DNA of 64,000 nt from Escherichia coli (GTDB lineage: Bacteria > Pseudomonadota > Gammaproteobacteria > Enterobacterales > Enterobacteriaceae), in NCBI RefSeq assembly GCF_041248615.1, contig NZ_CP158426.1. The stretch is one strand, 5' to 3'. Positions 45,004 through 48,825 of the stretch are shown here, in pieces; position 1 is the stretch's first letter, and each line of letters begins with the position of its first letter. The translations under genes and the position numbers were made by a program. The notes below the pieces were generated by a model. That model was not told where the DNA came from. It ran no database searches and saw only the letters and a list, made by a program, of their open reading frames with translations.

Positions 45004-46237
45004 ATGCTGCGATGGAAACGCTGTATTATTCTAACATTTATCTCTGGTGCTGCTTTCGCGGCACCAGAGATAAATGTTAAGCAAAACGAATCGTTACCTG
45101 ATTTAGGTAGCCAGGCAGCACAGCGGGATGAACAAACCAACAAGGGTAAATCGCTGAAAGAGCGCGGAGCCGATTACGTCATCAACTCCGCCACGCAAGG
45201 GTTTGAAAACTTGACCCCTGAGGCGCTGGAATCTCAGGCCAGAAGCTATCTGCAAAGTCAAATCATCTCAACCGCACAATCTTATATTGAAGACACTCTC
45301 TCTCCCTACGGTAAGGTCCGTTCGAACCTCTCCATTGGCCAGGGCGGCGATCTGGATGGCAGTTCCATCGATTATTTTGTTCCCTGGTACGATAATCAAA
45401 CCACTGTTTATTTCAGTCAATTTTCTGCGCAACGAAAAGAAGATCGTACAATCGGGAATATTGGTCTTGGGGTAAGACATAATTTTAATGAATGGTTATT
45501 GGGTGGAAATGTATTTTATGATTATGATTTTACCCGAGGACATCGCCGTTTAGGTTTAGGCGGCGAAGCGTGGACTGATTATTTAAAATTCTCTGGCAAC
45601 TATTATCATCCGCTTTCTGACTGGAAAGACTCTGAAGATTTCGGCTTTTATGAAGAACGCCCTGCGCGCGGCTGGGATATTCGTGCCGAAGCCTGGTTAC
45701 CTTCTTATCCGCAACTGGGGGGCAAAGTTGTCTTCGAGCAATATTACGGCGATGAAGTCGCCCTTTTTGGTACGGATAATTTGGAGAAAGATCCCTACGC
45801 GGTAACACTTGGACTGAATTATCAACCGGTGCCATTACTAACCGTTGGGGCGGACTATAAAGCGGGGACCGGAGATAACAGCGATGTCAGCATTAATGCC
45901 ACTCTTAATTATCAGTTCGGCGTTCCGCTAAAAGATCAATTGGATAGCGATAAAGTGAAAGCGGCTCACTCGTTGATGGGCAGTCGTCATGATTTTGTTG
46001 AGCGTAATAACTTTATTGTTCTGGAATACAAAGAAAAAGATCCGCTTGATGTCACCCTGTGGTTAAAAGCGGATGCCACCAACGAGCACCCTGAGTGCGT
46101 CATTAAGGACACTCCCGAAGCGGCCGTCGGGCTGGAAAAATGTAAATGGACCATTAACGCGCTTATCAACCACCACTACAAAATTGTCGCTGCGTCATGG
46201 CAGGCGAAAAACAATGCTGCCCGCACGCTGGTTATGC
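45004..46237 (+). pseudogene. sinH: SinH/SivH-like inverse autotransporter (intimin/invasin family), 5' fragment with signal peptide and beta-barrel region; truncated by IS21 insertion
   Basis: Signal peptide MLRWKRCIILTFISGAAFA followed by a beta-strand-rich region. The native reading frame ends at the IS left end (46238); the tracked ORF tail GDHSITSIEIG is IS-encoded. Locus yfgJ-xseA matches the Salmonella CS54 sinH context. Confidence 0.6.
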
Positions 46238-46430
46238 TGCGTATTTTCATGAAAGGAGATCACTCAATAACTTCCATCGAGATCGGGTAATAACATTTGA
46301 ACAGATCGCTGAATAACATCGATGGAGATCACTTTTGACTCATTTTGTTATTCAGTGATCTCCATCAATGTTATTGGAACTTCACAGGTGTGTTGATCTG
46401 TATCTTTTGCCATTCCGGTAAAGGATACCT

Positions 46431-47972
46431 ATGCCAACAGTTCCAATTTCTATGAGAAAACTTAAAGAAATTCTTAGGCTTAAATACGGTGTTGGACTCA
46501 GCCATCGACAAATTGGTCGTAGTCTTGCAATCTCCCCTTCCGTTGTATCCAGATATGCTAATCGGGCGGCTCAACTTGGCATAAAGCAGTGGCCCTTACC
46601 TACAGGATGGGATGATACAAAACTAAAACATGCGTTCCTTCAGACCCAGGTTAAGATGAAGAAGCACTCTCTGCCTGACTGGGCTACAGTACACCGGGAA
46701 CTGCGTAATAAATGCGTGACGCTGCAGCTACTCTGGGAAGAATACTGTGAGCGTAATCCAGGCGGTTTTTACAGCTATAACCATTACTGCCGGATGTACC
46801 GTGAATGGCTCAAAACCACTTCACCATCAATGCGTCAGGTACATAAAGCTGGCGAAAAACTTTTCGTTGATTACTGTGGACCTACCGTTGGCGTTACCGA
46901 CCCTGAGACCGGAGAAATAAGAACTGCTCAGGTCATCGTAGCTGTTCTCGGGGCATCAAGTTACACATGGGCAGAGGCCACCTGGTCTCAGCAGCTTGAA
47001 GACTGGGTGATGAGTCATGTTCGCTGCTTCCAGTGGTTGGGTGGCGTTCCTGAACTTGTTGTTCCGGACAATCTGAAAAGCGCCACATCCAGGGCATGTA
47101 AGTATGATCCTGACGTTAACCCTACCTACCAGCAGATGCTTGAGCATTATAATGTCGCAGTTTTGCCTGCGCGGCCACGTAAACCGAAAGATAAAGCCAA
47201 AGCTGAAGTTGGCGTTCAGGTTGTTGAACGCTGGATCATGGCCCGAATCAGGCATGAGATCTTCTACAGCCTTGCATCGCTTAATCAGCGCATTCGGGAG
47301 TTGCTGGAAAGACTGAATAACAAAATAATGCAGAAGTTGGGTTATTCACGTGCAGAACTCTTCATCCAGCTTGATAAACCCGCACTGAAGCCTCTTCCTG
47401 AAGCCAGTTACAGTTACACCCTGGTGAAGAAAGTCAGAGTTCATGCCGATTACCACGTGGAAATCGACAAACATTACTACTCGGTTCCATGTTCGCTGTT
47501 AGGCCAGCAACTGGAAGCATGGATCTCCGGAGAACTGGTAAGACTCTTCAATCAGGGGCAGGAGGTTGCTGTGCACCCGCGCAAGCGTACTTATGGCTAC
47601 AGTACCCGCAACGAGCACATGCCTGAAGCTCATCGACAGCATGCCACCTGGACGCCAGAGCGTCTTCTGGAATGGGCGGGGCACATAGGCAGTGAAACTC
47701 ATAGTTATGTGCTTCATATACTGAACTCTCGTCCACATCCGGAACAAAGCTATCGCTTCTGCCTTGGACTCCTGAACCTTCATAAAAAATACAGTAAAGC
47801 CAGACTTAATGCAGCATGTGCAAGAGCTCTGAAAACAAAGGTATGGCGTCTGTCAGGTATTAAATCGATCCTGGAAAAAGGTCTGGATAAACAACCTGTT
47901 CAGGATCCAAAACCAGATCTGTTATCCACGATGGAACACGAAAACGTACGCGGCAGTGAGTATTACCACTGA
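46431..47972 (+). CDS. istA: IS21-family transposase IstA
   Basis: 513 aa with N-terminal helix-turn-helix (LSHRQIGRSLAISPSVVSRY) and DDE core; immediately followed by istB. Confidence 0.85.
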   Translation: MPTVPISMRKLKEILRLKYGVGLSHRQIGRSLAISPSVVSRYANRAAQLGIKQWPLPTGWDDTKLKHAFLQTQVKMKKHSLPDWATVHRELRNKCVTLQLLWEEYCERNPGGFYSYNHYCRMYREWLKTTSPSMRQVHKAGEKLFVDYCGPTVGVTDPETGEIRTAQVIVAVLGASSYTWAEATWSQQLEDWVMSHVRCFQWLGGVPELVVPDNLKSATSRACKYDPDVNPTYQQMLEHYNVAVLPARPRKPKDKAKAEVGVQVVERWIMARIRHEIFYSLASLNQRIRELLERLNNKIMQKLGYSRAELFIQLDKPALKPLPEASYSYTLVKKVRVHADYHVEIDKHYYSVPCSLLGQQLEAWISGELVRLFNQGQEVAVHPRKRTYGYSTRNEHMPEAHRQHATWTPERLLEWAGHIGSETHSYVLHILNSRPHPEQSYRFCLGLLNLHKKYSKARLNAACARALKTKVWRLSGIKSILEKGLDKQPVQDPKPDLLSTMEHENVRGSEYYH

Positions 47973-47983
47973 TACGGGATCCA

Positions 47984-48733
47984 ATGATGAATCATCTTTA
48001 CGAACAACTGACCGCACTTAAACTCACCGGCTTCCGTGATGCGCTTAAAAAGCAACTTGCTCAGCCGGGCACATACCAGGAGCTGGGCTTCGAAGAACGC
48101 CTGTCATTACTGACAGCAGAAGAACTAACCTGCCGTGAAAACAGGAAGGCAGAGCGTCTGATCAAACATGCACGGTTCAGACTTAATGCTGAGTTATCAA
48201 AGCTGGATTATCGTAACAATAGAGGGCTGGACAGGGCCCTCATCCGTTCACTCAGTCAGGGAAACTGGTTAACCCTGAAACAAAATATTTTACTGACCGG
48301 GGCCACCGGCAGCGGTAAAACGTTCCTGGCATGTGCACTTGGTCATAATGCCTGCCGACAGGGATACAAGGTCTACTATTATCGCCTTAAAGCGCTGATG
48401 GAACAGTGCTATCAGGGGCATGCTGATGGAAGATACAGCAAACTTTTGACCAGGCTGAATAATAGCGATCTGCTGCTTCTGGATGACTGGGGGCTGGAAC
48501 CTCTCTCATCAGAACAGCGTAGCGACCTGCTGGAAATAGTGGATCTGATGTACCAACGAGGCTCAATCATCGTAGTGAGCCAGTTGCCGGTGGAAAACTG
48601 GTACAAAATGATCGGAGACTCCACACATGCGGATGCCATCCTAGATCGACTGGTTCATGGCAGTATCAAGATCGAACTTAAAGGAGAATCAATGCGGAAA
48701 ATACAATCTCCGTTGACCGAAGGAGATCAGTGA
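47984..48733 (+). CDS. istB: IS21-family helper ATPase IstB
   Basis: 249 aa with Walker A GATGSGKT and Walker B LLLLDDWG. Confidence 0.85.
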   Translation: MMNHLYEQLTALKLTGFRDALKKQLAQPGTYQELGFEERLSLLTAEELTCRENRKAERLIKHARFRLNAELSKLDYRNNRGLDRALIRSLSQGNWLTLKQNILLTGATGSGKTFLACALGHNACRQGYKVYYYRLKALMEQCYQGHADGRYSKLLTRLNNSDLLLLDDWGLEPLSSEQRSDLLEIVDLMYQRGSIIVVSQLPVENWYKMIGDSTHADAILDRLVHGSIKIELKGESMRKIQSPLTEGDQ

Positions 48734-48825
48734 AGGTAATTTAAAAACGGTTCTGTGAAAGTGACACGAACCGATCTCCATCGATGTTACTCACCGATCT
48801 CCTTCACGGTAATACGCAGTTATGC

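Follow-up and report, generated by a model that had tools for sequence, protein, structure and literature searches.

ISEc12 interrupts the sinH gene of Escherichia coli with a 7-bp target-site duplication

What has split the sinH gene in a 64,000-nt stretch of Escherichia coli DNA (contig NZ_CP158426.1 of assembly GCF_041248615.1; this whole stretch is referred to below as the window), and was the gene cleanly interrupted or was the locus also rearranged? A preliminary description, made from the sequence alone, proposed that an insertion sequence (IS) of the IS21 family had entered sinH in a simple event, with duplication of 7 bp, and had knocked out this adhesin-like gene. In the present analysis, window positions 46238-48818 were identified as a complete 2581-bp copy of ISEc12, of the IS21 family, in the same orientation as sinH. 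Interruption of a known gene (sinH/iatB) by a catalogued IS is in itself already known, and RefSeq already annotates the locus in this way.

Interruption of sinH by ISEc12

The 5' fragment of sinH (45004-46237, + strand) comprises codons 1-411 and the first base of codon 412, encoding the signal peptide, the inverse autotransporter (IAT) β-barrel and the first ~75 residues of immunoglobulin (Ig)-like domain 1. The 3' fragment (48826-49769, + strand) runs from the remainder of domain 1 through domains 2 and 3 to the stop codon. Both are pseudogenes in RefSeq, annotated as 'inverse autotransporter beta domain-containing protein, missing C-terminus' and 'intimin-like inverse autotransporter protein SinH, missing N-terminus', respectively. 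When 46238-48825 is deleted in silico, the fragments join into 2178 nt, i.e. 725 codons followed by one terminal stop, in agreement with the size anticipated for an intact SinH. This excised sequence aligns contiguously across the junction with the annotated intact sinH (WP_001590502.1) of E. coli isolate 362 (NZ_OW967178.1), with identity at all 2178 of 2178 nt and only 2 differences in the surrounding 8.6 kb. The rejoined protein matches NF033423 SinH (NCBIfam equivalog) with 1480 bits (cutoff 999) over 1-725 of the 730 model positions, a full-length match that holds after excision, sinH in the window itself being a pseudogene.

The Pfam IAT_beta domain covers residues 63-336 of rejoined SinH, and the Ig-like passenger domains have been assigned to residues 337-724, with domain 3 at 602-724 (PMC9937491). 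As codon 412 falls within the passenger, after the barrel, the insertion is located in Ig-like domain 1. The rejoined protein resembles SinH/IatB of E. coli and Salmonella (PMC9937491, PMC6714894) in its length of 725 residues, its IAT_beta barrel and the der-sinH-sinI-ratA-like-xseA gene context, whereas in the window the gene is broken at codon 412 and carries a pseudogene annotation. Two open reading frames (ORFs) that had been put down to the insertion are by-products of it. The 438-aa ORF (44974-46290) uses an upstream TTG start and continues from SinH residues 1-411 into 17 IS-encoded residues, LRIFMKGDHSITSIEIG. The 315-aa ORF (48822-49769) corresponds to SinH residues 411-725 and starts at an ATG inside the right copy of the target-site duplication (TSD), i.e. 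at the duplicated M411 codon; neither a Shine-Dalgarno-like sequence upstream of it nor a signal peptide was found.

Empty sites, which had been suggested as a check on the proposed insertion, proved to be common among 5426 complete E. coli genomes. An in silico empty-site query of 600 bp (coverage of at least 80%) found the uninterrupted site in 1679 of these genomes, isolate 362 being matched at 100%, and a 400-bp query spanning the left junction was contiguous in a single one, that of the mcr-1-carrying clinical isolate E. coli NRZ14408. Over the 12.4 kb compared (window 40038-52437), the window and the NRZ14408 chromosome (NZ_LT599825.1) are identical. The sinH gene is present in 1700 of the 5426 genomes, with a near-full-length match in one place in 1686 and none in the other 14; large sinH disruptions of this kind are rare. 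Since excision restores an exact match to the empty site, and since the insertion is found in one genome, the duplication consists of target DNA, the locus has suffered neither loss nor rearrangement, and the insertion is a recent one, specific to the strain.

The identification as ISEc12 rests on full-length identity to copies annotated by the Prokaryotic Genome Annotation Pipeline (PGAP), and RefSeq uses the same name. A megablast search with 46238-48818 against the complete E. coli genomes gave 2407 matching records, many at 100% over positions 1-2581 and annotated as 'IS21-like element ISEc12 family transposase' and 'helper ATPase IstB'. Plasmid copies at 100% identity are likewise numerous; the plasmid collection has ISEc12 in 978 records, for the most part conjugative plasmids from Escherichia, Shigella and Klebsiella. 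Elsewhere, in other E. coli genomes and in plasmids, many ISEc12 copies have in turn been entered by an IS3-family element (IS1203-like), so that the match consists of two pieces in a span of ~3893 bp, suggesting that this nested arrangement is one structure that has spread widely. Identical copies at many different sites, together with an insertion seen in 1 of 5426 genomes, suggest, albeit only indirectly, that ISEc12 may be active in transposition.

The element (+ strand) starts with TG and finishes with CA, and the imperfect inverted repeats of about 50 bp that had been noticed at its ends are borne out by an alignment in which 38 of 50 positions are identical, with one 1-nt gap. An inverted-repeat search gave arms of 53 nt at 72%, plus a 17-nt pair at the very tips. 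The left terminal inverted repeat (TIR) region (46238-46318, + strand) holds three direct subsites spaced 23 bp apart, L1 (46250-46272), L2 (46273-46295) and L3 (46296-46318), with an extra inverted copy at 46346-46368. The right TIR (48762-48818, - strand) holds two, R1 (48785-48807) and R2 (48762-48784), again 23 bp apart, and multiple TIR repeats at this spacing are characteristic of IS21-family ends (PMC10122671). A common end motif of ~16 nt, GAGATCRSTNNRTAAC, is found at 46256, 46279 and 46302 on the + strand, inverted at 46347-46362 (- strand), and at 48786 and 48763 on the right. It has 7 matches in the window against 1.6 expected by chance, 6 of the 7 being inside the ISEc12 ends; no further ISEc12 ends were found elsewhere in the window.

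Both transposition genes are intact and lie on one strand, with 14 nt between the istA stop and the istB start. The istA gene (46431-47972, + strand) encodes a transposase of 513 aa (WP_001298859.1) with an N-terminal helix-turn-helix (HTH), a DDE/rve core and a Mu-transposase-C-like β-barrel (Pfam rve at 139-252, Mu-transpos_C_2 at 322-385), and matches NF033546 'IS21 family transposase' (NCBIfam equivalog) with 310 bits (cutoff 160). Alignment to the cryo-electron microscopy structures of IS5376 IstA (8q4d/8b4h) shows that the D, D and E motifs are conserved, and D147, D213 and E259 are the putative catalytic triad. The istB gene (47987-48733, + strand) encodes an AAA+ helper ATPase of 248 aa (WP_001016257.1), which matches NF038214 'IS21-like helper ATPase' with 270 bits (cutoff 200) and Pfam IstB_IS21 with an E-value of 2.7e-67. 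It carries a Walker A (GATGSGKT, 105-112) and a Walker B motif (LLLDD, 163-167), and was aligned to the IS5376 IstB structures 8q3w/5bq5. The family assignment of the preliminary description is upheld, as every defining feature of the IS21 family that can be tested on sequence was found in this element.

The closest precedent is ISEc12 at tssM in E. coli sequence type 131 (ST131) clade C (PMC10711316), an earlier case of gene inactivation by the same IS, with identical 2581 bp, the same IstA and IstB proteins and the same ends, and with the target gene likewise split into two pseudogene fragments. The window differs in the target, sinH rather than tssM, in a duplication of 7 rather than 5 bp, and in its occurrence in one genome rather than being clade-fixed. 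Consecutive istA and istB genes, an HTH/DDE/β-barrel IstA, an AAA+ IstB, TIRs of direct repeats 23 bp apart, a terminal CA and a short target duplication are shared with IS21/IS5376 (PMC10122671, PMC11208146), albeit at a distance (phmmer E-values of ~3e-13 for IstA and ~2e-27 for IstB). The left end in the window has three subsites and one inverted subsite, whereas the prototypical IS21 element is drawn with two, and the duplication is 7 bp, compared with 5 bp for IS5376.

The 7-bp duplication and rival explanations

The direct repeat GTTATGC reported at the borders of the element is present at 46231-46237 (left copy) and, as an exact repeat, at 48819-48825 (right copy). It cannot be extended, as G faces A on the left and T faces C on the right, and the chance that two fixed junctions share an exact 7-mer is 4^-7 (~6e-5). 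The empty site holds GCTGGTTATGCCGG, with GTTATGC in a single copy.

Target duplications in the IS21 family are commonly 5 bp and range from 4 to 8 bp. In a sample of 18 other ISEc12 copies, all (18 of 18) have 2581 bp between identical terminal 25-mers (TGCGT...ACGCA), and unrelated flanking bases were noted for seventeen. At two of them, L005 and L012, no duplication is present, an indication of IS-mediated rearrangement there. One more copy represents an insertion that another sampled copy already provides. Among the remaining 15 distinct insertions the duplication was 5 bp in 13, 6 bp in one and 7 bp in one. The duplication in sinH is thus unambiguous, yet a minority outcome within the 5-7 bp of ISEc12, a refinement of the preliminary description, which had stated the 7 bp as such. 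Duplications of 5 bp have also been found for the tssM insertion in ST131 (PMC10711316) and for IS5376 in vitro (PMC10122671, PMC11208146). On a more speculative reading, the spread of 5, 6 and 7 bp would imply a flexible geometry of IstA-IstB strand transfer. No target consensus was apparent in an alignment of the 18 ISEc12 flanks. Several junction matches ran 10-23 nt into the sinH flank; a target-site preference was rejected as their cause and they were treated as chance BLAST extensions, because the aligned flanks lack a consensus.

We propose, with a probability of about 96%, that sinH on the chromosome of E. coli NRZ14408, or of a very recent ancestor of it, received a single ISEc12 copy by transposition. 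By analogy with IS21/IS5376 (PMC10122671, PMC11208146), IstA, aided by the AAA+ ATPase IstB on the target DNA, would attach the element by its 3'-CA ends to the two target strands, cut at points 7 bp from each other, and gap repair would duplicate GTTATGC.

The unusual look of a 7-bp repeat, next to the 5-bp duplications of most ISEc12 insertions including that in tssM (PMC10711316), could be taken to mean that GTTATGC belongs to the IS termini, or that the element measures 2583 bp and has duplicated 5 bp. The same terminal 25-mers delimit 2581 bp in the other sampled copies, however, with unrelated flanks, and removal of exactly 2581 + 7 bp restores 100% identity to an empty site in which the repeat occurs once; a 5-bp reading (TATGC) also conflicts with the bases directly after the right end. 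On the strength of the common IS ends, the unrelated flanks and the 7-bp fit to the empty site, both the repeat as a part of the IS and a 5-bp duplication with chance matches were ruled out, and we attach next to no probability to them. Equally little credence is given to recombination between two ISEc12 copies, or to an insertion with an adjacent deletion or inversion, by which sinH would not have been split cleanly. Such rearrangements do happen with ISEc12, as the two copies without a duplication indicate, and the left-junction query matches the NRZ14408 chromosome at about five places, but the sinH copy is flanked by an exact duplication, and after excision both flanks are collinear with and identical to the uninterrupted locus, without the loss or gain of a single base. 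The presence of multiple ISEc12 copies in NRZ14408, together with an insertion in only 1 of 5426 genomes, might also point to an assembly artefact in which a repeated IS was misplaced into sinH. A misplaced repeat would not yield a precise 7-bp duplication in which the two junctions coincide with the IS tips, and this explanation, albeit slightly less improbable than the foregoing two, is very unlikely.

Three caveats apply to a simple insertion that abolished the gene. The 7-bp stagger is atypical of ISEc12, which mostly gives 5 bp. From the sinH start, the reading frame runs through residues 1-411 and 17 IS codons to a stop, and this predicted 428-aa product, consisting of the barrel only, could still be made, so that loss of function is presumed. 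Finally, a consensus scan found no terminator-like site on the + strand between istB and the end of the IS. None of the evidence contradicts a simple insertion. Of the preliminary claim, the simple event therefore stands, on the exact excision, and the knock-out is best worded as presumed.

Other features of the window

A second IS, IS1397 of the IS3 family, has its transposase coding sequence at 4585-5933 and inverted repeats at 4533-4558 and 5941-5966. It sits between the halves of a palindrome resembling repetitive extragenic palindromic (REP) sequences, 4513-4531 (AAAATGCCGGATAAGGCGT) and 5970-5988 (ACGCCGCATCCGGCATCTT). This position is in keeping with the insertion of IS1397 into REP elements and bacterial interspersed mosaic elements (BIMEs). 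Two genes are annotated as pseudogenes, yphB (3635-4507), which adjoins IS1397, on account of an internal stop and yfhR (14515-15368), encoding an alpha/beta hydrolase, on account of a frameshift.

Beside the ryfA/timP small-toxin locus (Rfam ryfA, 25462-25766) there is a lone gene for an IS481-like transposase of 348 aa (25867-26913). With 219 bits it falls just below the NCBIfam cutoff of 224, and no terminal inverted repeats were found around it in a repeat search of 25600-27100; it may represent an IS that has decayed or been domesticated. The iscX-pepB spacer contains an Rfam match to AaHKsRNA22 (23142-23214, - strand) of 47 bits, with a gathering score of 39.8, which may be derived from a repeat element and not be a real small RNA. 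At the far end, a tyrosine recombinase/integrase gene (63867-64000) directly downstream of guaA runs off the window, and beyond it the source record continues with apparent prophage genes, encoding DUF1382, an MT-A70 methyltransferase and a PerC-family regulator. Nothing relevant to ISEc12 emerged from scans of the window for Rfam families and tRNAs.

Consequences for SinH and SinI

The break places the signal peptide and β-barrel on one side and the surface-exposed domains on the other, and the passenger domains, including domain 3, the receptor-binding and vaccine domain, are left on a fragment without signal peptide, β-barrel or recognisable ribosome-binding site. Surface-displayed SinH has presumably been lost.

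The downstream partner gene sinI (49824-50801, + strand; NF040711 partner_SinI, 336 bits) has been reported to be co-transcribed with sinH (PMC12525524), and its expression may possibly be reduced by polarity. Since no terminator-like site was found after istB on the + strand, and since the IS and sinH have the same orientation, read-through into sinI is also possible; a consensus scan of the + strand from istB to sinI found neither an outward promoter nor a terminator. The RatA-like adhesin of 2680 aa could, like sinI, be affected by either polarity or read-through. Over its last ~100 residues (619-722 of the rejoined protein), SinH is homologous to SinI, each protein matching the NCBIfam model of the other, and SinI has a weak match to the ZirU family, which is consistent with the published zirTSU two-partner analogy (PMC6714894).

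A more far-reaching possibility is that the locus has been remodelled, with the 428-aa product of signal peptide, complete barrel and IS-encoded tail still inserting in the outer membrane, istAB read-through keeping sinI and the giant RatA-like adhesin expressed, and a ZirT-like platform for SinI export being kept while the SinH passenger is lost. We regard this as improbable; if true, the remodelled strain would have lost the SinH vaccine antigen yet retained the export platform for SinI.

SinH, and especially its Ig-like domain 3, is in development as a vaccine antigen against extraintestinal pathogenic E. coli (PMC9937491). The strain carrying sinH::ISEc12, a clinical mcr-1 carrier, is predicted to be without the displayed antigen. 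Beyond strain annotation the significance of this is slight, the event being a clean textbook case in which an IS has turned a gene into a pseudogene and a matching empty site exists. The insertion does represent one route of escape from a SinH vaccine, albeit a rare one, as only 14 of the 1700 sinH-positive genomes are without a near-full-length sinH match.

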